From a virus: DNA of 54,780 bases. The notes below the pieces were generated by a model, which saw only the letters and a program-made list of their open reading frames with translations, made no database searches and was not told where the DNA came from. Both the position numbers and the translations under genes were made by a program. Numbering within the stretch: the first letter of the stretch is position 1; each line of letters begins with the position of its first letter. The stretch is from the IMG/VR virus record IMGVR_UViG_3300017830_000022, positions 1 to 54,780 of that record; one strand, given 5' to 3'. Shown piece by piece: positions 3,883 to 29,188 of this stretch.

Positions 3883-3914
3883 AGGGGCGGCATAATCGGG
3901 CCCAGGAAACCCCG

Positions 3915-4370
3915 ATGTTTGAATTTCTACACAAATACGAGATCCCCAAAGACATCACTGCGAAGTTCAAGATTCCTTTCATTGGGAAGGACTTGAACTT
4001 TGTGTTGATCGTTCGTCCAGCAATCGCAGAACACAACTCAGCCTATCTTAATGAGATTGACCGCGTGACGATCAAGCGCTTGAAGGACGTTGACGGTAAA
4101 ACGTCAGACCGTGGCCCATTCCAGATCAAAGTCGAAGAGCATCGGAATCTGATTCCAATTTACGCCAAGACAATCGTCGTTGGGTGGGAAGGTGTGCACG
4201 ATACGGACGGGAATGAAGTCCCGTTCACTGCGCAGCACGCCCAGGAATTGCTTCAGCAGGTCCCGACAGACGCATACAAGCTGCTCGTTCGTTTCTGCGA
4301 ATCCCGTGAAAATTTCTTGCTGCCCGATGTGTTGACTGAAGCGGAAGCGGAGGTCGCGGCAAAAAACTAG
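3915..4370 (+). CDS. Tail assembly chaperone (G-like)
   Basis: 151 aa, upstream of the tape measure. Ends ...EVAAKN* with a slippery heptamer over its last codons. Confidence 0.75.
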   Translation: MFEFLHKYEIPKDITAKFKIPFIGKDLNFVLIVRPAIAEHNSAYLNEIDRVTIKRLKDVDGKTSDRGPFQIKVEEHRNLIPIYAKTIVVGWEGVHDTDGNEVPFTAQHAQELLQQVPTDAYKLLVRFCESRENFLLPDVLTEAEAEVAAKN

Positions 4371-4747
4371 TCAACCGGCTCCGTTACGAAACTTGGTACC
4401 GCAAGCATGCGGCTTGGGTAGTCAAGGAGAAGAAGAAGCGGGGTCGGCCGATACCTCATCACATTCAACGCAAGATCGACGAACAACCTCCGGTACCGCA
4501 AGGCGCCTCGTGGATCTTGTCGGCGTTTGACGATCTGGCGACATGTCGGATCTATCACGGCTATGGACATGGCCCCATTCCGTGGAGCGCTATTTATCAG
4601 TATGCTACAATGCGAGGGATGGAACCGGATCTGATGAGAGCTTTTTCACGGATGATCCGCGTGTTGGATAATCGTTGGCTTGGGGACAACGCTCCTAAAG
4701 CCAAGATGGATTCGAAGGGTGGCGGGAAGAAAGGGGTCGGTAAGTAG
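3915..4747 (+). CDS. Tail assembly chaperone fusion (GT-like) via -1 frameshift, join(3915..4367,4367..4747)
   Basis: Predicted ~277 aa with junction ...EVAAKN|LVNRLRYETWYRK.... This is the conserved G/GT strategy of long-tailed phages. The T frame ends 1 nt into the tape measure start. Confidence 0.65.
4361..4367 (+). promoter_or_regulatory. Programmed -1 ribosomal frameshift slip site A_AAA_AAC
   Basis: Zero-frame codons are AAA 4362-4364, AAC 4365-4367, TAG 4368-4370. The -1 frame, translated by hand, is open from 4367 to the TAG at 4745-4747. Confidence 0.7.
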
Positions 4748-13428: not shown

Positions 13429-16395
13429 ATGGCGTGGAACCTTGTCATCAATTTGGCTATCTTGGCCGTGGGCATCGCGGCTCGGATCATCATTGACAAG
13501 CGGCAACGGCTGAAAAATCAACCGCGGCCATCAGGTGAATTTCCCACGCCGACTAGCACAGAGGGCCGTGCGGTACCCATCGTGTGGGGCACGGCTCGTC
13601 TTGATGGACCGAATCTTCTTTGGTATGGCGACTCGCGGCGGGAGGAAATTGTTGCACGAAGCAGGTCAGTAAGGCTTCTTACGAGGCTTATTGATAGATT
13701 CGGGCAAGAAGTTGTCGTAGGGCATCGATATTTTTATGGACTTCAATATGGTCTTTGCGAAGGGCCCATTGAACGAATCACTCGAGTTTGGTTGAACGGT
13801 CGCCGAGTTTTTCAGCCGGACAATACAGGTGGCTCGGGCATGCCAGGCGGCATCATCTCTCAACGGCAAACAAACTTTTACGAGACGGACAACGGAATTG
13901 ATTTCGCGTTCCGTGTTTTCCCGGGCGATCCTGTACAAAGTGCTTCGTCCTATTTACAGCCGTTTCAAGAGATCGCAGGCGAGCAGCTTACATACGCGAA
14001 CACAGCCTACGTGGCGCCGGTAAGTGAGCCGATGTACATCGGCAATTCACGCGAGTCACTTCCTAGCTTTTCGTTTGAAGTTGTTCGGCTTCCGCCACTT
14101 CCGCCAGGTGGCAATATTCTACATCGTCGCGTGAATCCAGGAACGTTGCCGAGTCCTTCGGTGCCGGATGACATCTTCGCTGATGCGAACCCGGCCCATG
14201 TGTTGTATGAAATTCTCACAAACACGAAATGGGGGCACGCGATTCCAAGCAACGATATCGATGTAGCAAGTTTCAATGAAGCCGCTGAGATTCTGTTCGA
14301 CGAAGGGAACGGCTTCTCGTATTTCGTGGACGCACCCACACCGACGGACGAAATCATTGACATTCTTGAGACCCAGATCGACGGCGTGATGTTTCAAGAC
14401 CCGGTCACGACGCTCTGGAAACTTCGCCTGATCCGCGCGGGAGACGGATCCGATGCGATTGGAGGACCGATCGATGACGAGAGCGTGATTGAGTTCACGA
14501 ACTTCTCCCGCACCACTTGGCAAGATACGGTCAATCACCTGTCTCTCGAATTTCAAGATCGAGACGACAACTACAAGACGACCTACGCGGGCGCCCAAGA
14601 TATGGCGAATGTCCGCACCACTGGGCAACGGCGGAGCCAGGCGATTCGCTTTCCCGGCGTGAAGAATCGGGACCTCGCGAACAATCTTGTATGGCGTGAG
14701 CTTGTCCAACTCTCGCGTCCCTTGGCGACGGTCGAGGTGGTCGTCAATCGGACGTTCTACGCTGTACAACCGGGCGACAAGGTTCGAGTCCAGCTCTCCG
14801 CGCTCCGTCTCAACACCTTCAATCAGAATTTCCGAGTGGCATCCGTTGACCAGGGCGATTTGCTGAACGGAAGAATTCGACTCCAGCTTTCGCAAGACAT
14901 CTTCGATAATCAGATTGGCGCCTTTAATCCACCCGATGGAACGCTTTGGGAGCAGCCTGAAGAGACGCTGATCATCCCCGCACCGAATGACGCCTTCATT
15001 CAAGAGGCGCCCAGGAACTTGCAGCCCGTTGGAGAGGAAGATTCCATACGAATCCTTTACGCAACAAGACGAGCCGCGGGAGAAAATCAGATCCGCTTAC
15101 TGACAAACGACACTGCCACGCCAGAGAATTTCATTCTCGCCGGAGTGTCGGGCGGGTCCTTCATGCTCATCGGCACACTGGGCACCGAGATCCGTCCAGT
15201 AGATGGAGGTATCTCGAGTACGGTTACGTTCGAGGTAATCGGCACACCGGACACAACATCCATCATTCGAGACCGGCTTGATTTGGCGTTAGACCCGATA
15301 CCTGGCGTGGAGTTGGGTGAATCCATGAACTCGGTATTGGCAATCGGCAACGAATTCTTTTTGGTGTCGTCCGTCTCTACGGCGGGGCCGAATCTTCAGT
15401 TCACGGCCTTCCGGTCTGTATTGGACTCAGTGCCAGAAATGCACGCTGAGAACACGTTGATCTTCTTACTCTACTCGAAATATTCGGTAACGGACCTCGA
15501 ATACACAGATGGGCAAAACCTCGAGGTCAAAACGCAACCTGTTCTTTCGGACGGGTCGACGTTGCCGGAAGAAACATTACCACTTGTGACGACTATTGAT
15601 ATCGACCAGAGGTCGCAACGGCCCTATCCGCCCTCTGTTCTTTACGCATATAGTCGAGCATCCAACAATGTTTGGCTCGACGATGTCGACCTCGATTTTC
15701 AAGGAACGGACCCCGACAGCGACATCGGCTTCGAGATTTTCATGAATCGCCGTGATTATCGCGAGCGCAATGAAACACCGCAGCTCGCCCAAGATGCGGC
15801 GGTCATAGGCACAGAGACGCCTGCATTCCCTGGGGCAAATAGCACCGAGCATTCGATCTCATTTTTCCGTAACCCCGATACTGCGCCGGAGATCGTTACT
15901 ACGATCGGCGCTGGACAGAATGAGTCTGTTTTCATTCCACGTTCACAGATCTTACAGGGAAATGACGGCGCACTTCCAGCCAGGCTGGAAGTGCGCGTCG
16001 AAGCGACGCACACCGTGACGGGTGTCGGAGTCTTGACGTCTCGCTATTCTACGCGTTGGGTTTTTGACGTCTCTTCTGAACTCGGAGGGTTATTCGCACT
16101 TGGCAACATGACGGTAAATGACGCGAGCAATGCCTATAACGCAGAAGCGAACGATGACTATCGTGTATCTCTCACAGGCACCCCCGTTGGTGGAGATGTC
16201 GAGTATCGGCTAAATGGTGGATCCTGGACGACCTTGATCGATGTGACGAGCAACGGCGTAATCACAGGTGTGCTCGCGTCCGACCAAATTGAACTCCGCC
16301 ACACCGGCGTCGGGGTAGGTTTGCTAGGTTCTCGATTCATTGATATTACTAGGATCGGAACAAGCACGCGGGTCGCATACGGATTGATCGTATGA
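13429..16395 (+). CDS. Central tail fibre / host specificity protein (lambda J-like)
   Basis: 988 aa. ANPAHVLYEILTNTKWGHAIP...FNEAAEILFDEGNGFSYF resembles the conserved J / GTA g15 core. Last gene of the tail block. Confidence 0.7.
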   Translation: MAWNLVINLAILAVGIAARIIIDKRQRLKNQPRPSGEFPTPTSTEGRAVPIVWGTARLDGPNLLWYGDSRREEIVARSRSVRLLTRLIDRFGQEVVVGHRYFYGLQYGLCEGPIERITRVWLNGRRVFQPDNTGGSGMPGGIISQRQTNFYETDNGIDFAFRVFPGDPVQSASSYLQPFQEIAGEQLTYANTAYVAPVSEPMYIGNSRESLPSFSFEVVRLPPLPPGGNILHRRVNPGTLPSPSVPDDIFADANPAHVLYEILTNTKWGHAIPSNDIDVASFNEAAEILFDEGNGFSYFVDAPTPTDEIIDILETQIDGVMFQDPVTTLWKLRLIRAGDGSDAIGGPIDDESVIEFTNFSRTTWQDTVNHLSLEFQDRDDNYKTTYAGAQDMANVRTTGQRRSQAIRFPGVKNRDLANNLVWRELVQLSRPLATVEVVVNRTFYAVQPGDKVRVQLSALRLNTFNQNFRVASVDQGDLLNGRIRLQLSQDIFDNQIGAFNPPDGTLWEQPEETLIIPAPNDAFIQEAPRNLQPVGEEDSIRILYATRRAAGENQIRLLTNDTATPENFILAGVSGGSFMLIGTLGTEIRPVDGGISSTVTFEVIGTPDTTSIIRDRLDLALDPIPGVELGESMNSVLAIGNEFFLVSSVSTAGPNLQFTAFRSVLDSVPEMHAENTLIFLLYSKYSVTDLEYTDGQNLEVKTQPVLSDGSTLPEETLPLVTTIDIDQRSQRPYPPSVLYAYSRASNNVWLDDVDLDFQGTDPDSDIGFEIFMNRRDYRERNETPQLAQDAAVIGTETPAFPGANSTEHSISFFRNPDTAPEIVTTIGAGQNESVFIPRSQILQGNDGALPARLEVRVEATHTVTGVGVLTSRYSTRWVFDVSSELGGLFALGNMTVNDASNAYNAEANDDYRVSLTGTPVGGDVEYRLNGGSWTTLIDVTSNGVITGVLASDQIELRHTGVGVGLLGSRFIDITRIGTSTRVAYGLIV

Positions 16396-16836: not shown

Positions 16837-17562
16837 ATGAGGATTGCGGTCACGTCAATGCTTGTACTGGCGACCTGCGCCAAGCCCCCGGCCGAGTCGC
16901 CGAAACCACCTGACAAACCGCAGCCAAGCGAGCCGCCACCGGGTGAGCCCTACCCGGTGGTCGACTTTGGTGGGAAGGGCGAGCCCCAGCTCCCGTCTAA
17001 GGAGGATCCAAAACTCTGCGGAGCCAAGCGCTTCACCCACGCACACGCCCGCGATACCCGTCGACGTGTCCGCAGAGCATGTCGTTCTCTGGGCAACGCT
17101 GCGCACGTTTGTGAGGTCTACGACACGATTGTGGTCCGGGAATCCAATGGCAACGCTCAAGCCGTGTGTACGAAAGGACCAGGTGAGGTGGGGTTTGGAC
17201 CTATGTGCCTCTCGGCTCGATGGCAGGGCCCGAAATGGCCAGGTCCGCCGGAAGAATTTTGCATCCCCGAAGTGGCTGCGGTTGTCACGCACGAAATCTT
17301 TTGGCGCGCGGTAACGGCTTACGACGCGGAAACGTTAGCTGATCTACAGGCGATCTTTGGCTTTCACGTCTGGGAGGATGGCCGAGGCGGGCTGATGCCC
17401 GCACAGTACTGGCGGCATCGCCCGGCGTTTTGTCGACGGCTCGCGGACCGGGGTTTGGATTGCAATGCACCGGTGACGCGGAGCGATTTAGGTCGGCGGC
17501 TTCGGAAGGACCAGCGGGCAGCGTTTGTCGATCGCTTGTTGCGGAGTCGGCCCAGTGTCTGA
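16837..17562 (+). CDS. Lipoprotein with SLT-like lytic transglycosylase region (candidate endolysin)
   Basis: 241 aa. MRIAVTSMLVLATC is a short signal peptide plus a lipobox-like LATC. Pro-rich linker. VVRESNGNAQAV...GEVGFGPM resembles the E-S ... G-L-M-Q catalytic region of SLT domains. Confidence 0.5.
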   Translation: MRIAVTSMLVLATCAKPPAESPKPPDKPQPSEPPPGEPYPVVDFGGKGEPQLPSKEDPKLCGAKRFTHAHARDTRRRVRRACRSLGNAAHVCEVYDTIVVRESNGNAQAVCTKGPGEVGFGPMCLSARWQGPKWPGPPEEFCIPEVAAVVTHEIFWRAVTAYDAETLADLQAIFGFHVWEDGRGGLMPAQYWRHRPAFCRRLADRGLDCNAPVTRSDLGRRLRKDQRAAFVDRLLRSRPSV

Positions 17563-17782
17563 CCCCACTGCGGATCATCTCCGCGAGCTGTGGAATCGAG
17601 TTTCCCGCGAATTGCTCGCCCGCAATGTGTCGCAGCGAAAGCTCGCGGATCATCTCGGGATTGATCCGAGCGCGCTGAGTCGCAGCCTTAACGGGCAACG
17701 GGCGTGGCGCGTAACGGAATTACTGGATACATGTGAATTTTTGGAGAAAACCCCGAACGAACTGCTTGGATTTGAGCAGTAA
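17555..17782 (+). CDS. XRE/Cro-type HTH transcriptional regulator
   Basis: GTG 17555, overlapping the previous stop by 8 nt. VSQRKLADHLGIDPSALSRSLNGQR is a typical HTH. Confidence 0.7.
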   Translation: MSDPTADHLRELWNRVSRELLARNVSQRKLADHLGIDPSALSRSLNGQRAWRVTELLDTCEFLEKTPNELLGFEQ

Positions 17783-18057: not shown

Positions 18058-18301
18058 TCAAATCGATCTTGAAAAAGATTGGCGCGACTTTCTTGGCGAG
18101 TTGGCCAAGAAGAAGCTCGAGCAAGACCCAGATCTTGAAAAGCTTTGTGCCATGTGTAAGGAGAGTATCGCACAGATAGAACATCCACGCATGCGAGCGG
18201 ACATGATAAAAATCGTTAGTAGCATCATGAGTATGGCCGCAGCTATTGGGATAAAGGCGGGGGTAGAAGTAATGATTGAGATGAGGCAGAATGAAAACTA
18301 A
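18050..18301 (+). CDS. Hypothetical protein
   Basis: 83 aa from ATG 18050, with an 8-nt overlap with the previous gene. Helical, with a hydrophobic C-terminal part. Confidence 0.45.
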   Translation: MDNQIDLEKDWRDFLGELAKKKLEQDPDLEKLCAMCKESIAQIEHPRMRADMIKIVSSIMSMAAAIGIKAGVEVMIEMRQNEN

Positions 18302-19721
18302 AGCCTTTCCCCATCAGCAAAAAGACATCGACGAAAACGCTTTCCGTGAACGATGGGGCCTACTATGGGAAATGGGCACCGGCAAGACCCGAACGATCCT
18401 CGGTCACTTCGAGAAGCTTGTGAACGCGGGCAAGGTCACGCGAATCATTGTCGTCGCCCCGACGTCCGTACATCTGGGCTGGGGACGCGACGAGGCGCGC
18501 AAACATCTTGACGACGATCTTTTCCGGCGTCTTGTCGCGCTTTCATGGGTCTCTTCAAAGACCAAAACGAAGGCATTCCAGCGCAAGGCCGACACATTCA
18601 TGCATTCAAAGAATCCGGGACTAATGACATTGGGTTATGACGCCTTGATGAATAAGAATTGCTGGAAGTATGTGAAGACGATCATGAAGGAGCATAAGAC
18701 GCTCTTCGTGCTCGATGAGATGCACTACGTCAAAACACCCAGTGCGGCACGATCTACGCGGGTACACGCGACAGCGAAGTACGCCGCTTACGTCCGCGGA
18801 CTAAGTGGAACGCCGCAACCGAATAGCCCGTTTGATTTGTACATGGTGCTGAAAATTTTAAATCCAGAGATTCTCGCTGCGAATCAAGTACGAACGTCGG
18901 AAGCATTTCGGGCGTACTTTGGTGTGTTTCGTACACGGAATATCAATAATCATACATTCGAGGAGGTGACGGAGTATCGCAATTTAAGGCAACTCAGCTC
19001 GATGCTCAAAACGTGCACGCATCGCTTGTTGAAAGAACACGTTCTCGACCTCCCGCCCAAAATCTACACGCGACGCTACTTCACCATGCCACCCGAATGG
19101 AATGCTGCGTATAACAGCATCAAAGATTTACACGAACATATCTTCGAAGACGGTGAGCTTCTGACGACACCGCTTGCCATTCAAAGAATCACTCGACTGC
19201 AACAAGTTACGAGCGGCTACATCCCCACGGATGAATGTTCGTGGCCGCGACCCATCACGGGAGACAAAAATCCACGGCTCGATTTGCTAGAAGACATCCT
19301 TGCGGATACGACCGATAACGTCATTGTCTGGGCAAAGTACAAGAACGATCGCATTCGTATCTTCTCTCGGTTGGAGAAACTAGGTATCTCTTATGCAATC
19401 GTGCAAGGCGGCATGACAGATGAACAACGACGCAGCCAGGTTGCACGATTTCGTGAGGGCCGAGCTCGTGTTTTTATTGGGTCTGAGGCAGCAGCCGGAG
19501 CAGGAATCGATGGGTTTCAAGAACGTTGCGCAACGGTTGTCTATTACAACACAACCTACAACGGCGGCAATCGCCAACAATCGGAAGACCGCGCCCATCG
19601 AATTGGCCAAAAAAGAGCCGTCACTTATATTGACCTGATAGCATTGAATACTATAGATTCAGCGGTAGTGCAGAATCTCGAAGACAAGCGACGCCTGGCA
19701 AAGGAAGTGATTGACTCATGA
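18291..19721 (+). CDS. SNF2/Rad54-family helicase
   Basis: 476 aa. Motifs VLDEMHYVK (DExH), SGTPQPNS, QQSEDRAHRIGQKRAV. Confidence 0.85.
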   Translation: MKTKAFPHQQKDIDENAFRERWGLLWEMGTGKTRTILGHFEKLVNAGKVTRIIVVAPTSVHLGWGRDEARKHLDDDLFRRLVALSWVSSKTKTKAFQRKADTFMHSKNPGLMTLGYDALMNKNCWKYVKTIMKEHKTLFVLDEMHYVKTPSAARSTRVHATAKYAAYVRGLSGTPQPNSPFDLYMVLKILNPEILAANQVRTSEAFRAYFGVFRTRNINNHTFEEVTEYRNLRQLSSMLKTCTHRLLKEHVLDLPPKIYTRRYFTMPPEWNAAYNSIKDLHEHIFEDGELLTTPLAIQRITRLQQVTSGYIPTDECSWPRPITGDKNPRLDLLEDILADTTDNVIVWAKYKNDRIRIFSRLEKLGISYAIVQGGMTDEQRRSQVARFREGRARVFIGSEAAAGAGIDGFQERCATVVYYNTTYNGGNRQQSEDRAHRIGQKRAVTYIDLIALNTIDSAVVQNLEDKRRLAKEVIDS

Positions 19722-20272
19722 ATGCGGATATAAAAGAAATACTAGAGCAGCACGTGGCGTGGCTACGTGACCCGAAATCAGGGAGACAAGCAAACCTTCG
19801 CTACGCAAATCTCCACGGCGCAAACCTCCGCGACGCAGACCTCCACAAAGCGGATCTCCACAGAGTAGACCTCCGCGACGCAAACCTCCGCGACGCAAAC
19901 CTCTGCGACGCAAACCTCTGCGACGCAAACCTCTACGGGGCAAACCTCTGCGACGCAAACCTCCGCGACGCAAACCTTATCGGTGCAGACCTCCGCGACG
20001 CAAACCTCTGCGACGCAAACCTTATCGACGCAAACCTCCGCGACGCAAACCTTATCGGCGCAAACCTCCGCGACGCAAACCTCTACGGCGCAAATCTCCA
20101 CGGCGCAAACCTCCGCAGTGCAAACCTCCTGAGAGCCTCGTTGTGTCGCGCTACAATTGACGGAGCTAAATTAGCCTTCGAGGATATCGGAGGGCCTGGA
20201 CATATCCTTTGCGCCCTTACTGATCAGGAGTGGGAGCAAATTAAAGCTCAACGCGAGAAAGAAACCCCATGA
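19718..20272 (+). CDS. Pentapeptide-repeat protein 1
   Basis: 184 aa, ATGA-coupled to the SNF2 gene. ~25 consecutive A(N/D)Lxx pentapeptides followed by a ~45-aa non-repeat tail. Confidence 0.9.
   Translation: MNADIKEILEQHVAWLRDPKSGRQANLRYANLHGANLRDADLHKADLHRVDLRDANLRDANLCDANLCDANLYGANLCDANLRDANLIGADLRDANLCDANLIDANLRDANLIGANLRDANLYGANLHGANLRSANLLRASLCRATIDGAKLAFEDIGGPGHILCALTDQEWEQIKAQREKETP
19790..20135 (+). repeat. 15-nt periodic coding repeat array (GCAAACCTCCGCGAC-like)
   Basis: Visible tandem 15-nt units encoding ANLRD-type pentapeptides. They generate spurious antisense ORFs. Confidence 0.9.
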
Positions 20273-20802
20273 CCCAAGACCCCTATCATCAATTCCGTGT
20301 CCACGACACAAGTAAAATGAAAGAGCTGTCCGAATTATGCGACAGGCTCGAACGCGCTCGGCAAGTTGTCGAAGATTACGAGCAACAACTCGAAGACGCG
20401 ATGGACGTTGTCAAGGCGTTAGAGAGCCGGGAGATCCCCGATTTGATGCGCGAGCTCGACATGACCGAGGTCACCTTCGGCAATGGTCGCAAAGTGGCGG
20501 TGTCTGTCAAATATAAAGGCGGCATCGCCAAGGAAAATCGCGCCGCTGCGTTTGTCGTCCTTCGCGAGATGGATGAGGCCGGCATGATTAAAGGAGAAGT
20601 CAGAGCTAAGTTTGGTGCTGGAGATGAAAAGGCACAGAAGTTATATAAACAGCTCCAGGCTCGTGGCATAGATGTCGCGTATGACGAAAATGTCCACCAC
20701 AGCACCATCAGCTCCTGGGCAAACAAGCGGATGAAAGCCGGCGAAGTCGTACCGCCCGAGCTTGGTCTTTTCCCCCATACAACGGTGAAAATTACGCCAT
20801 GA
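20269..20802 (+). CDS. Hypothetical protein flanked by the two pentapeptide genes
   Basis: 177 aa, ATGA-coupled on both sides. N-terminal coiled-coil. No family recognised. Confidence 0.7.
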
Positions 20803-21278
20803 GTGCGGATATAGAAAAAACATTAAAGCAACACGTGGCGTGGTTACGTGACCCAAGTCTAGGGAGACAAGCAAACCTTCGCTACGCAAACCTCCGCAAC
20901 GCAAACCTCCACGGCGCAAACCTCCGCGACGCAGACCTCCACAAAGCGGATCTCTGCGGTGCAAACCTCCACGGCGCAAACCTCCGCGACGCAGACCTCC
21001 ACAAAGCGGATCTCCACAGAGTAGACCTCCGCAACGCAAACCTCCGCAACGCAAACCTCCGCGACGCAAACCTCCACGATGCAGACCTCCGCAACGCAAA
21101 CCTCCACGATGCAGACCTCCGCAACGCAAACCTCCACAGAGTAGACCTCCGCGACGCAAACCTCTACGGGGCAAACCTCTGCGACGCAAACCTCCGCGGG
21201 GCAAACCTTATCGGTGCAGACCTCCGCGACGCAAACCTCATCAACGCAGACCCCCATGATGTGTCGCGCTACAGTTGA
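20799..21278 (+). CDS. Pentapeptide-repeat protein 2 (C-terminally truncated relative to paralog 1)
   Basis: 159 aa with ~26 A(N/D)Lxx units. The 5' ~100 nt are highly similar to 19718... It stops inside a region homologous, out of frame, to the paralog 1 cap. Confidence 0.85.
20871..21255 (+). repeat. 15-nt periodic coding repeat array
   Basis: Same unit family as 19790..20135. Confidence 0.9.
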
Positions 21279-21367
21279 CGGAGCTAAATTAGCCTTGACG
21301 AAGCACAACGCAACCTAGATCGATTTCTTTTAAATTAATTCCAAAAAGCAAACAGAAAGATCAAGCA

Positions 21368-22222
21368 ATGCCCGAAAAAAAGAAAAAGAAGATCAAGAAG
21401 AAAAAAGATGACGCTCTGGCCACCACTGGCGAGACTGCCCTTGCTCAAAGTGGCGGCGAGGATTGGGGGGAGTACGCCGATCAAGGCAACGAGAACCTTG
21501 GTCAAGACGACCTCGCCACACCATTCCTGGGCCTTGCACAGAGCAAGAGCCCGGAGATCGAAGACCCGGAAAAGAAAATCCCTGGCCTCGAGCTTGGAGA
21601 TATCTTCAACCCCATCACACAGGAGATCTACGAGCGGCCCCTTACTTTCGTGCCTGTGACCTTCCGAACCCGCTGGTGCCTCTGGGCGGACCAGAAGGCG
21701 GGAGGCGGATTCAAAGGCGATTTCGGCCCGAATGATAAATTCGTCCGAGACGCATTGCAAAATCACATGGGCGACTCACCGAGTCCGATACTTCCAGACG
21801 GGTCAACGCTACTCGAAACGAAAGAACTATTCGCAATTCTTAACCCATTTGAGAAGCCCGAGATCGTATTGATCAGCCACGCAAAGACGAAAATCAAAGT
21901 CTTCAAGCGACTGATGACCGCATTGAACACGCCCTACATGATGCGCCCAGCAAGCAAACGACCGCCTATGTTTGCGAAGGTTTGCCAGATGGATACGTTC
22001 CACACGAAGAGCGCCGCGGGGCATATTTACTACAACTACAACTACACGCCCGAGATGATTGAAGGCCGGATCCGATTACTGCTGCCTTCTCATGAGATCA
22101 TGTCCATCGCTGCTGAGCTCTGCAAGAGCGTTAACGACGGTACTGTGAAGACACAGGCACCGTCTGCCGACGGCCCCATGGACGTTGAAGTGATGGACCC
22201 CGACGACATTCCGTTCGATTAA
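21368..22222 (+). CDS. Putative ssDNA-binding/annealing protein with SSB-like acidic C-terminal tip
   Basis: 284 aa. Poly-Lys N-terminus. C-terminus ...VMDPDDIPFD resembles the bacterial SSB tip DDDIPF. Located in the replication module. Confidence 0.35.
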   Translation: MPEKKKKKIKKKKDDALATTGETALAQSGGEDWGEYADQGNENLGQDDLATPFLGLAQSKSPEIEDPEKKIPGLELGDIFNPITQEIYERPLTFVPVTFRTRWCLWADQKAGGGFKGDFGPNDKFVRDALQNHMGDSPSPILPDGSTLLETKELFAILNPFEKPEIVLISHAKTKIKVFKRLMTALNTPYMMRPASKRPPMFAKVCQMDTFHTKSAAGHIYYNYNYTPEMIEGRIRLLLPSHEIMSIAAELCKSVNDGTVKTQAPSADGPMDVEVMDPDDIPFD

Positions 22223-22304
22223 GTCGAAACGGAATTTGCCTCACGGCGAGGCTGACCGGCCGCGGCCCGTGCGATTCGGGCCATCTTTTTCGGAGAAACC
22301 CAAA

Positions 22305-23522
22305 ATGCCTTTCACCCCCAAACAAATCGCCGCCATCGAAGCCGCTTGCGCCTTCACCGAAAGCGGCGAGCTCGACCGACCCTTTCTTCTCAGCGGCGAG
22401 GCGGGTACCGGAAAGACTTATGTCGCCCGTGAAATCGCCAAGCAGGCCGGAGGCCACGTCGGATTCGCGGCGTTCACTGGTAAGGCGGCCCAGATGTTGC
22501 ATTCGAAGGGGTGTATGGGGGCACAGACAATACACAGCCTGATCTACGCGCCAACGATGCGCTGCCAAAAACGACTTCGCGCGCTGAAAAAGCAACGAGC
22601 CGAAATGCTTGAAAAAGGCATTCCCGAGAATCACACGCAGGTCCAGGGCATCGATAAGGCCATCTCTGATGAAGAGAAGAACGTCGCCCGACCCAATTTC
22701 AAGCTGCAACTCGATTCCGTCCTCGAAGAGATGAGCACATTGATTGTTGACGAAGCCTCCATGGTCGGTGATCAAGTCTGGGAAGACCTGTTCACGTTCC
22801 GCAAACCGATCATTGCGCTGGGCGACCCGTACCAGCTACCGCCAGTGATGGCCAAATGCTCCATCATCAATCGCAAACCTGACTTCCTTTTGACTGAAAT
22901 CCACAGGCAGAAGAAAGGATCTGCAATCCTCGACATGGCTGGGCAAGTACGTCGAGGGAAATTCAATCCCAACGATTTTCCAAAATTCGAAGATCGCCCA
23001 GATGCGGAAGCCTCAGTTACGCCATGGAAGGGGCTCAAGCTTGAGGATGCGGCCAAGTTTGACCAGATCCTTTGCGGCGCCAACAAAACACGACGCGCAA
23101 TCAACAAGGCGTATCGCGAGCGCGTGTTGAACATCACCGACCCTCTTCCGCAAGTCGGAGATCGTCTCGTCTGCCTGCGCAATTCCAGCGAGTACGGCAT
23201 CATGAACGGGCAGCAATGGGTTGCGACAGAAGTTGTCGAAGAACCAGGCTTTCTTTACTTGTCTCTCGAAAATGACGACGGCAAGAAGGTAGCATGCCCC
23301 GTACATGCAGCCCCTTTCCTTGGCCATGACATCCCGCATTACGAACGGCGGGACGCGGAAGAATTTGACTATGCTTATGCGATTACTGTGCACAAAGCAC
23401 AGGGGTCGCAATGGGATCGTGTCGTCGTTGTGGATCAAAGCGCTATGTTCAGAAATGACCGACACAAGTGGCTTTACACCGCGGTCACGCGAGCGGCCGA
23501 ACAAGTCTTGCTCGTGAAATAG
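22305..23522 (+). CDS. SF1 helicase, RecD/Dda-like
   Basis: ATG 22305 chosen. Motifs GEAGTGKT (Walker A), IVDEASMV (Walker B), ITVHKAQGSQWD, LYTAVTRA. Confidence 0.8.
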   Translation: MPFTPKQIAAIEAACAFTESGELDRPFLLSGEAGTGKTYVAREIAKQAGGHVGFAAFTGKAAQMLHSKGCMGAQTIHSLIYAPTMRCQKRLRALKKQRAEMLEKGIPENHTQVQGIDKAISDEEKNVARPNFKLQLDSVLEEMSTLIVDEASMVGDQVWEDLFTFRKPIIALGDPYQLPPVMAKCSIINRKPDFLLTEIHRQKKGSAILDMAGQVRRGKFNPNDFPKFEDRPDAEASVTPWKGLKLEDAAKFDQILCGANKTRRAINKAYRERVLNITDPLPQVGDRLVCLRNSSEYGIMNGQQWVATEVVEEPGFLYLSLENDDGKKVACPVHAAPFLGHDIPHYERRDAEEFDYAYAITVHKAQGSQWDRVVVVDQSAMFRNDRHKWLYTAVTRAAEQVLLVK

Positions 23523-23535
23523 ACAGGATAGAACA

Positions 23536-23766
23536 ATGAACAAAGACGAACGACATTGCCCCGAAAACAATTGGGTTTCGGGGTTTCTCTATATTTTGGC
23601 CCAAGATCATATACCTTTCGGCAAGATCGAAGAGATCATGCTGCGAATGCGATCCTCTAATGGGGCACCGCAAAGAATTGATTTTGACAAAAACGACCCG
23701 CTGGGCAAGTGGGCTGAAGAAGCCGCAAAGGAGCTTGTGCAAAATGGCGAGAAGAAAGCGGTTTGA
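23536..23766 (+). CDS. Hypothetical protein
   Basis: 76 aa. Overlaps the polymerase start by 23 nt. Confidence 0.45.
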   Translation: MNKDERHCPENNWVSGFLYILAQDHIPFGKIEEIMLRMRSSNGAPQRIDFDKNDPLGKWAEEAAKELVQNGEKKAV

Positions 23767-25663
23767 AAACGCCGTTGGCCAAACGTGGATGTTTGGCCCC
23801 GAGTCGGATTGGAAGCCGCCCGACCTTTCTTCCCTCCCAAGCTGGCCCACTACTGGGCGAGTGGGGCTCGACATTGAGGCTCGCGACCCGCATCTCGACA
23901 AAAAGAAAGGCGGAGGGATCTCCGTTCGCCGAGGCGGGTATGTGACGGGGGTGTCTTTTGGATTCACGGACGGTTTCGCCAAATACACCCCTACCGCTCA
24001 GCTGGGAGGCGGGAATCTCCCCGCCGACAAAGTCTACCAATATTACCGCGATCAAGCCGCTCGGTTCGAAGGCGAGCTCGTACTTGCCAATGCCTCATTC
24101 GACCTCGACTATCTTGCCGAACTCGGCATCGTTTTCAAGCGGGCCAAAATTCGAGACGTTCTCAACGCGGCGCCCCTTCTTTGGGAGCATCACGATAGTT
24201 ATCGTCTTGACGCTGTCGCTAAGCGAGCCGGACTCGAAGGGAAGAACGAAACGCTACTCCGCCAGGCTGCTGAGATGGCTAACATCGACCCGAAGAAAGA
24301 TTTGTGGCAACTGCCCGCATCCGTTGTCGGGCCCTATGCGGAACAAGATGCTTTGGAGCCCCTCAAAGTCTACACAACTCAATACCCGCAACTCGAAAAA
24401 GAACGCCTCCTAGATATCTGGAATCTCGAAAGCGAACTTCTGCCCATCCTCATCAAGATGCGGAGGCGCGGCGTGAAAGTCGATTTCGACCAGCTCGATC
24501 GCGTCGAAGCATGGGCCCTAGCCAAATGTGACGACCATCTCGCCGAGATCGCCCACCTCACTGGACATCGTCTCAGCCGAAAAGATTTGAACAAGTCTGC
24601 CGCCAAAGCTCGTCCTCTCGAACACGTGGGCATACGTGTCCCCCTCACCGATGCGGGAAACCCCTCCGTCTCCAAAGAGTTGCTGGAATCTATCGACCAT
24701 CCCGTCGGTCTCGCGCTTCGCAAGGCATCCGGATATCTAAAAACGTCGCAAACATTTGCGACGTCCGTGCGAATCTATGCCGTCAAAGGACGGGTCCATC
24801 CCGAGTTCGTGCAAGTTCGCCGCACCAAAGACGACGGCACAGCTCAAGGCGCGACGCCAGGACGACTGAGTTGCGTCTCCCCCAATCTGCAGCAACAGCC
24901 TTCTGGTCGACCACCCTTCGAGGAGCTCGGTCCCATGTGGCGCGCCATCTACGTCCCCGACGACCCAGATTCGCAATGGGGCTGTTTCGATTACAGCCAA
25001 CAAGAGCCGCGAATGATGGCGGCCGACGCCGAGCGACTCGGCTGTACGGGCGGGGCCGCGATCGCCGAACGATACCGCCAGGACCCGAACACCGACAATC
25101 ACACCATGATGGCCGAGATCACCGGCCTGCCCAGGAAAATCGCCAAGAATATTTTTCTGGGCAAGTGCTACGCGATGGGCGGGGCTCGATTCGCCCAGCA
25201 AGTGGGGCTCCCGATCAAGGTGATCACCAAACGAAGCGGCAAGAAATTCGAAGCGGCTGGCGATGAGGCGGCAGAGATGCTCCGGATCTTCGACGAAAAG
25301 GTGCCTTACGTTCGTGAGCTCGCTAAGAAAGCCGAAGCGCAGGCCAACAAACTAGGGTACATCCGCACGATACTCGGCCGCAAGTGTCGTTTCACGCCTG
25401 CGCAGCTACGTGCGGGAAAGGCCTACAAGGCACTCAATCGTCGCATCCAAGGATCGTCTGCGGACCAGATGAAAAAAGCCATGATTCTTGCGGAACAAGC
25501 GGGGTTTAAACTACGGTTACAAGTCCATGACGAAGTCGACAAGGACATCTTGCCGGGAGAAGACCCGCGCGAACTAGCGCAGATCATGATGGATGCCGTG
25601 CCCAGTACGGTGCCGTTCTGGGTGGATGTAGAGACAGGCCCAAATTGGGGGGAGATCTCGTGA
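23744..25663 (+). CDS. Family A DNA polymerase with 3'-5' exonuclease domain
   Basis: Exonuclease motifs GLDIEA, NASFDLDYL, YAEQDA. Polymerase motifs DYSQQEPRMMA (A), RKIAKNIFLGKCYAMG (B), LQVHDEV (C). Confidence 0.9.
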   Translation: MARRKRFENAVGQTWMFGPESDWKPPDLSSLPSWPTTGRVGLDIEARDPHLDKKKGGGISVRRGGYVTGVSFGFTDGFAKYTPTAQLGGGNLPADKVYQYYRDQAARFEGELVLANASFDLDYLAELGIVFKRAKIRDVLNAAPLLWEHHDSYRLDAVAKRAGLEGKNETLLRQAAEMANIDPKKDLWQLPASVVGPYAEQDALEPLKVYTTQYPQLEKERLLDIWNLESELLPILIKMRRRGVKVDFDQLDRVEAWALAKCDDHLAEIAHLTGHRLSRKDLNKSAAKARPLEHVGIRVPLTDAGNPSVSKELLESIDHPVGLALRKASGYLKTSQTFATSVRIYAVKGRVHPEFVQVRRTKDDGTAQGATPGRLSCVSPNLQQQPSGRPPFEELGPMWRAIYVPDDPDSQWGCFDYSQQEPRMMAADAERLGCTGGAAIAERYRQDPNTDNHTMMAEITGLPRKIAKNIFLGKCYAMGGARFAQQVGLPIKVITKRSGKKFEAAGDEAAEMLRIFDEKVPYVRELAKKAEAQANKLGYIRTILGRKCRFTPAQLRAGKAYKALNRRIQGSSADQMKKAMILAEQAGFKLRLQVHDEVDKDILPGEDPRELAQIMMDAVPSTVPFWVDVETGPNWGEIS

Positions 25664-26064
25664 AGGAAAAGACAGCCCGAAAAAATATCGTCGCTGCGAT
25701 CGCGACCTACCGCCATGCGATGGCGGTAGAAAATCCTGCCCATCCCGGCACGCCAGACATCAATTTCGCAGGCGGCTGGATTGAGGTCAAGTCCCGCGAC
25801 GAATGGCCGGCACGGGCAACGACTCCCGTACGTCCTCGGCATCCGCTCATGATGGAGCAAATTCGGTGGATCCGGACAAGAGTGGGGACGGGAAGAGATA
25901 AGGTCTATATCGCTTTTGTCGTGGGAAAACAGTACATGTTTTTCGATGGGCTGAAAGGCATTGAGATCATCGGCTTGGCTAATCGAAAAGATCTGGAGGC
26001 TGCGGCACTTTTAAGTTGTACACGCCCGGCATTAGAATCGAACCTTCGTCAGCTTCTTGGCTAA
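25660..26064 (+). CDS. VRR-NUC-like PD-(D/E)xK nuclease
   Basis: GTG 25660 (GTGA overlap with the polymerase stop). GTPDINFAGGWIEVKS is the PD...ExK core. Confidence 0.6.
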   Translation: MKEKTARKNIVAAIATYRHAMAVENPAHPGTPDINFAGGWIEVKSRDEWPARATTPVRPRHPLMMEQIRWIRTRVGTGRDKVYIAFVVGKQYMFFDGLKGIEIIGLANRKDLEAAALLSCTRPALESNLRQLLG

Positions 26065-26081
26065 TTGACAGGCCCACTGCA

Positions 26082-28595
26082 ATGCAGCCGAACTACGAAG
26101 AAACCTTTACCTTCCTTAAAAAACATTCACCAAAAAATCATTGGGTTCTTGTTGGCATCTCTCCTGAAGACCGGAGCATTGTAGGCGCGTCATTTGACGT
26201 CAATCAGCAAAAAGAAACGATCCATTGGCTGGAGACGCGGAATCAGCAGCAACGGCTGAACGTTTACTTCTGCGTCAACCCCACGATCAAACCGATCATG
26301 AAGAAACCCAAGCGCACGGACATCGCTCGTGTCACGCATCTTCATCTGGATCTTGACCCTGCCCCCATGCCGAACGATTTTGAGGGAACGAAGGAAGCGT
26401 GGATCGATGATGAGCAGCAGCGAATTTATGGCGTCCTGACATCCGCTCGTCCAGAACCTACAACGGTTTTGTTTAGCGGCGGGGGCTATCAGGCGTTTTG
26501 GAAACTAGAGATCCCTATCGAGATCGACGGCGACGTAGAGGCAGCCGAAGAAGCGCGTCTTTACAACATGGGCCTCGAACAGAGATACGGTGGCGACCAA
26601 TGCCACAACATCGATCGGGTCATGCGGCTGCCCGGCACAATCAACTGGCCCGACGCAAAGAAGCGAAAGAAGGGACGGGAGCCCTGTCTATCTTCCATCA
26701 TCTGGCATAACGATAATGTTTACGAACTAAGCCAATTCGTTCCGGGTGTGACGAAAACGACGAAGAAGTCTTCTGCGAAAGATCGCGCGGCCCAGCAAGA
26801 GAAGCTTACGAACGCAGCGCTTAATCGCAATATGCCCGCGTCGCTGAAATACATCATCAAAAATGGAGAAGACCCCGACAAACCCGATCGTTGGGATGGC
26901 GATCGTTCGGCTATGGTCTGGTTCGTCACGTGCGAGATGTTCCGTTATTCCGCGTCAGAAGAGCAAGTCGTTTCCGTCTTGACCAATCCGCTCCTTCGAA
27001 TTTCTGGGCACGTTCTCGACCAGAACGACCCCGAAGACTATGCCCGTCGTCAGTGGGCCCGAGCAGAAGAAAATGCGGTCGACCCCAAACTTGTCGAGCT
27101 CAACGACCGCCATGCCATACTGCTCGAAAAAGGCATGATTCTCACAGAAAAACCCGGCCATCCGCCCATCATCCAAAGTCGCGCTGATTTCCATTTGCGC
27201 TATATGAATCGCTACGTTGAAGTGCCCGAAGGAGACGGAACGAAAATAAAAAAGATTGACCTGGCCCAGTGGTGGTTGAGACACCCGCAGCGAAGAGAGT
27301 ACGAGGACATGCATTACGCTCCCTTCGATAAGGACCCCCGTCGGTACAACCGTTGGTGCGGCTTTGCGGTCGAGCCCAAAGAAGGCGACTGTTCCATGTT
27401 TCTTGAACACGCCAAAGATGTGATCTGTGCGGGCAACGACGACCATTTCGAGTATCTTGTCCGGTGGATGGCGCATTGCATCCAAAACCCACACAGGCTG
27501 GGCGAAGTGGCGGTCGTTATTCATGGTGACCAAGGCACGGGCAAATCGTTATTCTGCAAAGAGATCTGCCACATCTTTGGGTTGGGCAAGCACGCGATCT
27601 CGGTGGCAAACGTTGAACACGTAGTTGGTCGGTTCAACGCCCACCTGTCACAGTGCTCGTTGCTTTTAATCGAAGAAGCCAACTTCACGCGCGATAAGAA
27701 GAGTATCCCGATTCTCAAAACGCTGGTCACGGAAAGTGACATGGCGATCGAGATGAAATACCAAGACCTCACGTATGGTAAGAACCATATGCATGTCATG
27801 ATGACATCGAACGATACGTGGGTCGTGCCGGCGGAGATCAACGAGCGCCGGTTTTTTGTACTGCGGGCTTCGTCCACGCATCGCCAGAACCCAAAGTATT
27901 TCGCACGATTCGTCAAGACAATGGAAGAAGGAGGTCGTGAAGCGTTGCTCCAATTTTTGATGAAGGTTGATTTGACAAATTTCAACATCCGGATCTTCCC
28001 GCATTCGGATTCGCTTCAAACCCAGAAGATGCAATCGCTTAGTGTGGAACAGGCATGGTGGTACGAGAAGTTGGATTCAGGCGAACTGTTCGAGGGAGAG
28101 GTCTGGCCGGACAACAAAAATCTCCACGCTTGGTGCAAACATGTTCGGAGTTCGTTTATCGCCCATACCCGACGATGGGGGTCGAAAGAACGGATCAGCC
28201 AACAGAAGCTCAATCAGTATCTACGCACGTTCATGCCCAGCGGTGTGGCTGAGCGTCGCCGTCTTACCAAAAGCGTGGATCATAAAAATCCAGAGACAGG
28301 CGAAATGGAAAGACTTGACCGCCCGCATTACTATCGATTGCCCACCCTTCGAGAATGCCGCGAATGGTGGGACAGAAACTTTGGCGGCCCCTACGAGTGG
28401 GTCGCGCCAGAAGGCATACAAGAGGAACTACCCATATGGAAGAAAAAAAGACCCCGACCCAAGAACCCCGAACTACCGCCACTGATTCCGCTCGAACTAC
28501 CGCCAGCAATGAAAGAAAGGGAGGAGGAGAGGAAGAGACAAGAGGAAGAGAAGAAAGCGAAGGAGATGGCAAATCCCGATATACCGACATCATGA
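26082..28595 (+). CDS. Primase-polymerase / SF3 (P4-D5-type) helicase
   Basis: ATG 26082 chosen. Prim-pol-like HLHLDLD and FSGGGYQAFW. GDQGTGKS Walker A and LLLIEEA Walker B. Highly charged C-terminal tail. Confidence 0.8.
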   Translation: MQPNYEETFTFLKKHSPKNHWVLVGISPEDRSIVGASFDVNQQKETIHWLETRNQQQRLNVYFCVNPTIKPIMKKPKRTDIARVTHLHLDLDPAPMPNDFEGTKEAWIDDEQQRIYGVLTSARPEPTTVLFSGGGYQAFWKLEIPIEIDGDVEAAEEARLYNMGLEQRYGGDQCHNIDRVMRLPGTINWPDAKKRKKGREPCLSSIIWHNDNVYELSQFVPGVTKTTKKSSAKDRAAQQEKLTNAALNRNMPASLKYIIKNGEDPDKPDRWDGDRSAMVWFVTCEMFRYSASEEQVVSVLTNPLLRISGHVLDQNDPEDYARRQWARAEENAVDPKLVELNDRHAILLEKGMILTEKPGHPPIIQSRADFHLRYMNRYVEVPEGDGTKIKKIDLAQWWLRHPQRREYEDMHYAPFDKDPRRYNRWCGFAVEPKEGDCSMFLEHAKDVICAGNDDHFEYLVRWMAHCIQNPHRLGEVAVVIHGDQGTGKSLFCKEICHIFGLGKHAISVANVEHVVGRFNAHLSQCSLLLIEEANFTRDKKSIPILKTLVTESDMAIEMKYQDLTYGKNHMHVMMTSNDTWVVPAEINERRFFVLRASSTHRQNPKYFARFVKTMEEGGREALLQFLMKVDLTNFNIRIFPHSDSLQTQKMQSLSVEQAWWYEKLDSGELFEGEVWPDNKNLHAWCKHVRSSFIAHTRRWGSKERISQQKLNQYLRTFMPSGVAERRRLTKSVDHKNPETGEMERLDRPHYYRLPTLRECREWWDRNFGGPYEWVAPEGIQEELPIWKKKRPRPKNPELPPLIPLELPPAMKEREEERKRQEEEKKAKEMANPDIPTS

Positions 28596-29188
28596 TCGAT
28601 ATCGAAACGTTGGGAACGCAACCCGACTCAACCATTTTGAGCATCGGCGCGCATCCATTTTGGTTTTATGCGCCTATGGAATATAGTGAATATTGGGACG
28701 GCGACCGGATGACCAGGAGAAAAAAGAAACTTCCTGCGGTCGGTCCCATTGAAGACGGATTCTATCGACGTATAGATATTTATTTGAGCGAACCGCTTCG
28801 CGTAAGCCCAGGGACGCTGCTCTTCTGGGCACGCCAACCGCCTGAAAGTTTTCGGGATCTTCTCGACCCCGAGGGCGCGGTGCACCTCGGCACCGCGCTC
28901 ATCGATCTGGCAACCTGGATCGGCCACAAAGGATTCCGTGGCACTGCGCCACGAATCTGGGCAAACGACCCGAGCTTTGATCTGGTCATGCTTACCCGGG
29001 CGTATCACAGCCAAAGTCTAAAGCTTCCGTGGGAATTTCGACAAGAACGGAGCTACCGAACAATTAAAAATCACGTCGACCTAAATGACATTGGTCGAAA
29101 TCTTCCTCACCACCATGCCCATTTTGATGCGATGCATCAAGCAAGGGAATTGGCCGGGATTGGGGATCTGATTGAGGGGAAGGAATAA
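28592..29188 (+). CDS. DnaQ-like 3'-5' exonuclease
   Basis: ATG 28592 (ATGA overlap). MIDIETLG (Exo I), NDPSFDLVML (Exo II), HHAHFDAMHQA (Exo III). Confidence 0.75.
   Translation: MIDIETLGTQPDSTILSIGAHPFWFYAPMEYSEYWDGDRMTRRKKKLPAVGPIEDGFYRRIDIYLSEPLRVSPGTLLFWARQPPESFRDLLDPEGAVHLGTALIDLATWIGHKGFRGTAPRIWANDPSFDLVMLTRAYHSQSLKLPWEFRQERSYRTIKNHVDLNDIGRNLPHHHAHFDAMHQARELAGIGDLIEGKE

Follow-up and report, generated by a model that had tools for sequence, protein, structure and literature searches.

Two pentapeptide-repeat genes flank a conserved gene of the replication module in a tailed-phage genome

Results

The 54,780-nucleotide (nt) stretch of viral DNA analyzed here (IMG/VR record IMGVR_UViG_3300017830_000022, positions 1 to 54,780; the window) contains two genes encoding pentapeptide-repeat proteins (PRPs), termed PRP1 and PRP2, which flank a core gene of a conserved phage replication module. 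All of the genes described in this region are on the plus strand. The module opens with a SNF2-family helicase of 476 residues (18291-19721; Pfam SNF2-rel_dom 4.6e-17 and Helicase_C 5.5e-12; phrog_62 DNA helicase 4.4e-103), whose TGA stop codon overlaps the ATG of PRP1 (184 residues, 19718-20272; PF00805 8.7e-39; phrog_7713 7.4e-55). There follow a 177-residue DUF7307 protein resembling gp33 of cyanophage Pam3 (20269-20802; PF23984 1.8e-22; phrog_2378 5.2e-35), PRP2 (159 residues, 20799-21278; PF00805 2.6e-54; phrog_7713 about 1e-52 to 1.2e-51), a 284-residue protein resembling Pam3 gp34 (21368-22222; PF23977 2.7e-42; phrog_2402), a Dda/RecD-like superfamily 1 helicase of 428 residues (22236-23522; AAA_30 4.7e-23, UvrD_C_2 1.4e-18; phrog_325 Dda-like helicase 8.3e-92) and a family A DNA polymerase, PolA, of 667 residues (23660-25663; PF00476 3e-36).

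Read directly from the sequence, ATGA overlaps at 19718-19721, 20269-20272 and 20799-20802 join the SNF2 gene, PRP1, the gp33-like gene and PRP2. A preliminary description made from the sequence alone had reported four consecutive genes coupled in this way, and the list of open reading frames (ORFs) and the sequence agree with it. Such junctions are frequent in the window, with 12 on the plus strand between ORFs of at least 80 residues; because they are common across the genome, three in succession indicate dense gene packing and no special signal. No promoter- or terminator-like site between the four genes stood out from shuffled sequence. A search of the whole window against Rfam gave zero matches, hence none in or after the repeat arrays, and an RNA element or terminator after PRP2 was rejected as a candidate, the region folding no better than shuffled sequence (z = 0.95).

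We compared this arrangement with that at 43 gp33 loci on 38 distinct contigs. They include loci from a profile-based search that used a 6-sequence alignment. The SNF2, gp33 and gp34 genes are syntenic nearly throughout, and the order SNF2, (gp32), gp33/DUF7307, gp34, Dda-like helicase, PolA is widely conserved. Cyanophage Pam3 and Pseudomonas phage Ab18 have SNF2, gp32 (PF23992), gp33, gp34 and Dda-like helicase, as do loci L004 and L006. The window shares the SNF2, gp33, gp34, Dda-like helicase order, all on one strand, with this Pam3-type module (Pam3 gp31-gp36, Ab18 ORF01-05, PB1-like phages and many uncultured phages), and in Pam3 and Ab18 the gene following SNF2 is likewise coupled to it by ATGA or a short overlap. 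The window differs from the Pam3-type module in two respects, i.e., it lacks gp32 and it has PRP genes on both sides of gp33.

Among the 38 contigs, gp33 lies between gp34 and either SNF2 or gp32, and in none of them (0/38) is it flanked by PRPs. Loci L022 and L025, which hold the best matches to the SNF2 protein of the window, have the order tail protein, SNF2, gp33, gp34, Dda, PolA, gp33 being next to SNF2 and to gp34 without an intervening gene. When all loci were scanned for pentapeptide arrays, only L006 proved to have one, in a 143-residue PRP just downstream of gp34. A six-frame search of the window with a gp32 hidden Markov model gave no gp32 homolog, the tail of PRP1 included (best E 2.9). 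The gp32-like gene is present in many members of the group but not in all, being absent from L017, L022 and L025 as well. PRP1 occupies the position that gp32 holds in many relatives, and PRP2 lies between gp33 and gp34. Since the relatives with the best SNF2 matches run directly from SNF2 to gp33 to gp34, and no PRP flanks gp33 in the 38 contigs, the PRP genes are, by parsimony, probably lineage-specific insertions at the two gp33 junctions, one having been copied from the other. The preliminary description treated such a cassette as apparently undescribed, and we found the exact triplet nowhere else. Its view of the PRPs as bracketing an unknown partner is not supported, because the middle gene is a conserved core gene that is not flanked by PRPs in any of the related contigs.

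Both PRP genes contain long tandem arrays of a 15-nt unit. Tandem Repeats Finder placed 22.7 copies at 19790-20129 in PRP1, with the consensus GCAAACCTCCGCGAC encoding ANLRD, and 25.5 copies at 20871-21252 in PRP2. The encoded proteins belong to the Pentapeptide family (PF00805), scoring 131 bits (PRP1) and 181 bits (PRP2) against a gathering cut-off of 20.2. In PRP1, a helical cap at the N-terminus (residues 1-24) is followed by 23 canonical (A/V)(N/D)L units and three degenerate ones (ASLCR, ATIDG and AKLAF), and the protein closes with a tail of 30 residues that includes a predicted C-terminal helix. PRP2 has the same cap and 25 units but lacks the C-terminal tail. Earlier estimates of about 25 and 26 units were close to these in-register counts (23 plus 3, and 25). 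Over 48 units, the first position is A in 45, the second N or D in all 48 and the third L in all 48. The fourth is R, H, C, I, Y or L and the fifth D, G, N, R, K, Y or S, and these last two positions vary mainly by single-base changes. The per-position codon table thus shows the inward-facing A and L (and N/D) to be fixed while the outward-facing positions 4 and 5 vary. The possibility that the arrays are non-coding iterons was rejected, as they are in frame with a PRP-family cap and their variation follows codon positions.

Long ORFs are also found on the minus strand at 19778-20101, 20641-21204 and 20859-21308 (107-187 residues), spanning both arrays. They translate as repeats, e.g., VCVAEVC and GGLRRRGL, and are not to be called genes; they stay open over such lengths because several frames of the 15-nt unit are free of stop codons.

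The two PRP genes are paralogs, as the preliminary description had proposed from their similar 5' ends. They show 85% identity over the first 96 nt, the encoded proteins agree at 25 of their first 32 residues, the arrays have exact stretches of 48-66 nt in common, and a 37-nt block recurs in both. Their description as recent paralogs fits the arrays, which look homogenized, but not the caps. The latter differ by five synonymous and seven non-synonymous changes, giving a synonymous divergence (dS) of ~0.33, which is not very recent, and a ratio of non-synonymous to synonymous divergence (dN/dS) of ~0.37, from a small sample of only 32 codons. This ratio, with the intactness of both arrays, argues that both copies have been maintained. 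Within PRP2 there are exact internal duplications of 54 nt at an offset of 60 nt (one whole 20-residue coil) and of 44 nt at an offset of 30 nt. Together with the runs shared between the genes, these sequence comparisons suggest that units are still being gained and that the two copies undergo conversion.

The 3' end of PRP2 requires separate comment. A repeat search with frame check found the first copy of the 37-nt block at 20142-20178, in frame in PRP1 and encoding (L)CRATIDGAKLAF, and a second, identical at 36 of 37 positions, at 21260-21296. In PRP2 the block is read in a different frame, and the gene ends six codons into it (stop codon 21276-21278). An alternative frame at 21261-21318 encodes PRP1-like C-terminal units and ends with TAG at 21316-21318. 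This stop codon coincides with the end coordinate of 21318 given in the preliminary description, whereas PRP2 as called stops at 21278. A 1-nt change of frame at the 3' end would yield a protein of 172 residues with the PRP1-like terminal units, ending at that TAG; a run of five C residues (21251-21255) lies just upstream of the frame change. The frame change may reflect a genuine truncation of the gene, or else an error at the homopolymer or in the assembly.

Both PRPs match phrog_7713 and phrog_923, which are families of unknown function, and residues D4, L9, H12 and W15 of the N-terminal cap are invariant across 20 sequences, which places both proteins in these families. PRP1-like genes were found by tblastn in at least 481 phage records, many of which already label the gene as a pentapeptide-repeat protein; the hosts of these phages include Mycobacterium, Rheinheimera, Staphylococcus, Listeria, Salmonella, Ralstonia and Caulobacter. 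A large protein collection held 1741 homologs at E<=1e-20. Given these numbers and the existing PHROG families, the novelty of phage PRPs that had been implied at the outset falls away. The window PRPs are instead additional, duplicated members of an annotated but uncharacterized family of phage accessory PRPs, inserted in a conserved module.

The best full-length matches to the PRPs were in Salmonella enterica genome records, and the same gene is present in P22-like phages. The P22-like PRPs (ST64T/L orf232, epsilon34 gp42 and ST104 ORF19) have a homologous cap (MNxxD..ILExH..W) and, after it, an A(N/D)LXX array without interruption, and these and other PHROG 7713/923 proteins are 45-58% identical to PRP1 over 96-99% of its length. 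They also share with the window PRPs their siting in an early operon and a variable number of units. They differ from them in being single-copy, where the window has two copies flanking a replication gene, and in having a C-terminal domain of ~80 residues, of which PRP1 retains the start only (GGPGH..TDQEWEQI versus GCQNHTVEEWRKY) and PRP2 nothing. In an alignment of PRPs from Salmonella and Yersinia genome records (A4, P0115-P0226), near-identical proteins of Salmonella enterica have invariant caps and invariant C-terminal domains of ~80 residues, but they differ in unit number (199-239 residues) and in their outward-facing residues. Such variation would fit a binding surface that is diversifying rapidly. 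Phages L and ST64T, which are >99.9% identical, differ at two sites, one of which is the loss of a 15-bp unit in the early-left gene orf232 (PMC8022706).

The genomic contexts of phage PRPs have a common tendency but no common partner. In epsilon34, the PRP gene is part of the PL early operon, where it comes directly after the N gene and precedes cIII, kil, erf, ssb and abc2. The L006 locus (2922-7309) runs SNF2, gp32, gp33, gp34, PRP, and is one of two unrelated uncultured contigs with a PRP in an SNF2-led early operon. The other, from a temperate phage (L047, 3659-5852), has SNF2, a gene of 60 residues and a PRP with DUF5758, followed by PDDEXK/AAA_24 and DUF669 genes. In L048 the PRP lies in an early cluster with an ERF recombinase, ~600 bp and two small genes downstream, and in Caulobacter phage RW, as in contig MW202665, it is found among small early genes. 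Phage PRPs thus behave as mobile accessory genes leaning toward early, replication or recombination regions, with no fixed partner.

AlphaFold2 modeling of PRP1 gave a cap helix (residues 3-17) and then, between residues 26 and 141, beta bridges at five-residue intervals, with a predicted local distance difference test (pLDDT) score of 84-98. In the tail, residues 140-167 scored <50 (disordered) and a helix at 169-182 scored ~50-60. PRP1 is therefore predicted to be a right-handed quadrilateral beta-helix of ~6 coils. The preliminary description had likened the PRPs to the beta-helix proteins Qnr, MfpA and AlbG, and the model of PRP1 does match the MfpA, QnrB1 and AlbG structures. Foldseek comparisons with solved PRPs gave values of 1e-11 to 1e-5 overall (best 1.7e-11); the best were with designed consensus solenoids, Np275/276, HetL and Rfr23, the matches to MfpA, QnrB1 and AlbG being weaker, and a sequence search ranked them alike. 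The cyanobacterial PRPs (Np275/Np276, HetL/All3740, Alr5209 and Rfr23) and the designed "beta1" solenoids (sequence 2e-46 to 3e-14, Foldseek 2e-11 to 1e-7) resemble the window PRPs in that their A(D/N)LXX units are nearly perfect and are preceded by a helical cap at the N-terminus. However, the match is driven by the repeat consensus, and the window PRPs fall below the NCBIfam cut-offs for HetL (92-108 bits versus 260) and Alr5209 (95-108 versus 125). These sequence and structure matches provide no evidence for a shared function or for a cyanobacterial origin of the window PRPs.

With Qnr, MfpA, AlbG and McbG the window PRPs share the predicted right-handed quadrilateral beta-helix (modeled for PRP1; Foldseek 1e-7 to 1e-4) and a similar size, but differ in several ways. 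On the NCBIfam Qnr model, PRP1 scored 50.1 and PRP2 70.7 bits against a cut-off of 240, and on the MfpA model they scored 43 and 52 bits against 360. In Qnr proteins (QnrB1 and AhQnr structures), two loops interrupt the beta-helix, whereas the PRP arrays contain no insertion and the PRP1 model has a regular five-residue periodicity. Of the dimerization helix of Qnr and MfpA there is at most a low-confidence candidate in PRP1 (169-182), after the segment that scored <50, and PRP2 ends within its array. The neighbors are phage replication genes rather than the MfpB GTPase and partners of an mfp conservon. Finally, net charge is much weaker than in these proteins. As calculated from sequence, PRP1 has an isoelectric point (pI) of 5.3 and a net charge of -7, and PRP2 a pI of 6.8 and a net charge of -1, R and H being common at the outward position 4. 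The proposal that the PRPs are DNA mimics is correspondingly weak, since both score far below the Qnr and MfpA cut-offs, PRP1 is mildly acidic and PRP2 nearly neutral.

A comparison can also be made with Ocr and ArdA, whose mimicry depends on a dense array of acidic residues. These are likewise small proteins of early phage regions or mobile elements, and have been proposed to fill the sites at which host enzymes bind DNA, a mechanism that the preliminary description suggested for the PRPs. Their fold is unrelated to that of the PRPs, and they are densely acidic where the latter carry the modest charges given above. PADLOC models matched neither PRP, nor gp33 or gp34; PADLOC matches to the SNF2 and Dda proteins were rejected as defense components, because they reflect generic helicase similarity.

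The middle gene had been described as encoding an unknown coiled-coil protein of 177 residues. An AlphaFold2 model based on a 63-sequence alignment (pLDDT 89) does contain a 49-residue N-terminal helix, but this is followed by an alpha/beta domain, so that the DUF7307/gp33-like protein is not merely a coiled coil. It has 114 homologs, each no more than 34% identical to it, and tblastn searches yielded 441 phage records with gp33 and 500 with gp34. Foldseek found no analogue of the gp33-like fold in the PDB (best E 0.45) and, in BFVD, uncharacterized phage proteins only. The GenBank label of Pam3 gp33 (L001 5914-6471) is "host-nuclease inhibitor". We found this label to be unsupported: a relationship to the Mu Gam-like inhibitor was rejected, because a profile search of PDB sequences returned coiled-coil noise and there was no fold match.

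The gp34-like protein ends in an acidic tail, ...MDPDDIPFD (encoded at ~22160-22219). Among ~35 homologs (loci L001-L046), nearly all C-termini are PF or F after an acidic or glycine-rich tail, e.g., DDPPF, KAPF, DEVPF, DDTVF and EDTPF. The C-terminal tip of bacterial SSB is DDDIPF, and the C-terminal end of T7 gp2.5 is acidic and aromatic. By analogy, the Pam3_Gp34/phrog_2402 family may comprise single-stranded DNA-binding or hub proteins of the module. The gp33 and gp34 families are both widespread and uncharacterized, gp34 bearing an SSB-like C-terminal tip.

The window is the genome of a tailed phage, and looks complete or nearly so. The preliminary assignment of the locus to a phage replication module was borne out by the SNF2 and Dda-like helicases, PolA and a primase nearby, with terminase, portal and tail genes elsewhere. 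The primase/DUF5906 gene (26016-28595) is ATGA-coupled to a gene for a 3'-5' exonuclease (28592-29188). A terminase (47964-49475), a Mu-like portal (49460-50848), a tail tube protein (2365-3882) and a Phage-tail_3 protein (13429-16395) are encoded elsewhere in the window. Just upstream of the replication operon is a gene for an 85-residue helix-turn-helix protein of the Cro/CI type (17525-17782; HTH_26 1.6e-06, HTH_3 3.1e-06), which overlaps the 3' end of the preceding ORF of 241 residues (16837-17562) and may encode an early regulator. No tRNA genes were found in the window.

No close relative was present in any collection searched. A DNA search with 18291-23522 against 50,697 phage records gave matches at the level of repeats and helicases only, and a single-protein locus search in IMG/VR with gp33 gave no match. 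The best homolog of the SNF2 protein was 37% identical (L025), and the best gp33 homologs no more than 34%.

Discussion

The account that we favor, with moderate confidence, is that the PRPs are accessory genes, duplicated at the two gp33 junctions, made early, and binding a host DNA-handling enzyme as rigid rods. On this account, one PRP gene would have been acquired as an accessory and later copied to the second gp33 junction. With both copies packed by ATGA overlaps, the PRPs would be made early, alongside the replication proteins, since the genes are contiguous and there is no convincing promoter or terminator among them. Possible host targets of the rods are topoisomerases (gyrase among them), nucleases, and components of restriction or other defense systems. 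Two copies with differing surfaces would broaden the range of targets, and diversification of surface and length, plus duplication in this phage, would track variation in the target. An anti-defense or host-enzyme decoy role is plausible by analogy with PRPs that bind such enzymes. Nothing that we found requires a partnership of the PRPs with gp33 or SNF2.

Several points weigh against this account. The closest relatives are distant (37% identity for SNF2, at most 34% for gp33), so that the history of insertion and then duplication is an argument from parsimony. The window derives from a metagenome, and the unit counts in two arrays of ~350 nt could be mis-assembled. PRP2, having lost the C-terminal units and tail through the frame change, could be decaying. 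The contexts of phage PRPs are not uniform, the gene in L049 following a terminase gene, and the literature searched reports no function for any stand-alone phage PRP. The target-binding mechanism itself is drawn from Qnr, MfpA and AlbG, yet the window PRPs fail the Qnr and MfpA cut-offs and lack the strong acidity of those proteins, PRP2 especially.

A more specific version is that the PRPs bind host gyrase or topoisomerase IV in the manner of Qnr and MfpA, either shielding the enzyme from poisoning by a toxin, a microcin or an abortive-infection effector, or damping host supercoiling in favor of phage replication. The PRP1 fold is the same as that of MfpA, QnrB1 and AlbG, the proteins (159-184 residues) are near the size of MfpA as judged by chain length, and their genes lie among replication genes. 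Moreover, gyrase is a known target of small phage proteins, e.g., the inhibitors Igy and Gip, although these are small peptides unrelated to PRPs (PMC10886550). However, the gyrase-type version, like that of strict DNA mimicry, is weakened by the failed family cut-offs, the lack of Qnr-type loops and the weak acidity. In addition, the dimerization helix is uncertain in PRP1 and absent from PRP2, and the nearest matches are consensus-type cyanobacterial and designed PRPs that are unlinked to gyrase. We regard this version as unlikely.

A duplication of no adaptive value, in which the repeats are simply prone to recombination and PRP2, frameshifted at its 3' end, is becoming a pseudogene, seems to us rather improbable. 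It would account for the reading of the 37-nt block out of the PRP1 frame, with loss of the C-terminal units and tail, and for the fresh internal duplications in PRP2, and gain and loss of units is documented between near-identical phages. On the other hand, PRP2 retains 159 uninterrupted codons and an ATGA-coupled start, all 25 of its units conform to A/V-(N/D)-L with variation at outward-facing positions only, and the dN/dS of the caps is ~0.37, albeit over just 32 codons.

The notion that PRP1, the gp33-like protein and PRP2 form a three-protein unit, in which DNA-mimicking rods work with the middle protein, or regulate the SNF2 helicase, as a decoy against nucleases or restriction, is improbable. 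It draws on the tight translational coupling of the four genes, on the recurrence of PRPs near SNF2-led early modules in the unrelated contigs L006 and L047, and on the presence of PRP1 in the gp32 slot of a genome without gp32. Yet ATGA coupling is general across this genome, gp33 is without flanking PRPs in 38 of 38 related contigs, SNF2, gp33 and gp34 are immediate neighbors in the relatives with the best SNF2 matches, related PRPs occur elsewhere in unrelated contexts, and PRP2, being near neutral, fits a DNA mimic poorly.

It is very unlikely that the PRPs provide phage-borne exclusion of, or defense against, competing phages rather than counter-defense against the host: the hypervariable arrays and conserved termini of the homologs in Salmonella genomes would suit an arms race, and the effector of the Hailong defense system, HalA, includes a PRP domain, but that domain is fused to an ion channel (PMC13586616), i.e., a potassium-channel membrane domain, in a system paired with a nucleotidyltransferase, whereas the window PRPs have no channel or membrane domain (Pfam), match no PADLOC model and lie among replication genes in a lytic operon rather than in a prophage-expressed locus, as does the epsilon34 homolog in its PL early lytic operon.

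Returning to the reading of the PRPs as accessory rods that bind a host enzyme, a bolder extension is that stand-alone phage PRPs would constitute a widespread, programmable class of counter-defense or host-takeover proteins, each a rigid beta-helix whose length and outward-facing residues are rapidly retuned by gain, loss and conversion of 15-nt units. This phage would have duplicated the gene to obtain two surfaces, one acidic and the other near neutral and rich in His and Arg, that would hit two DNA-handling or defense targets of the host at the start of replication. We offer this as a tentative proposal, doubtful in its full form.

The locus itself is a one-off, and it is the PRP gene family that matters. 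Sequenced phages with small stand-alone PRPs number in the hundreds, and metagenomic contigs with them in the thousands, and the length and surface of the PRP arrays shift between near-identical phages. Two diverged PRP copies beside helicase genes would make this phage a convenient site for testing the idea that such proteins act as decoys for host enzymes.

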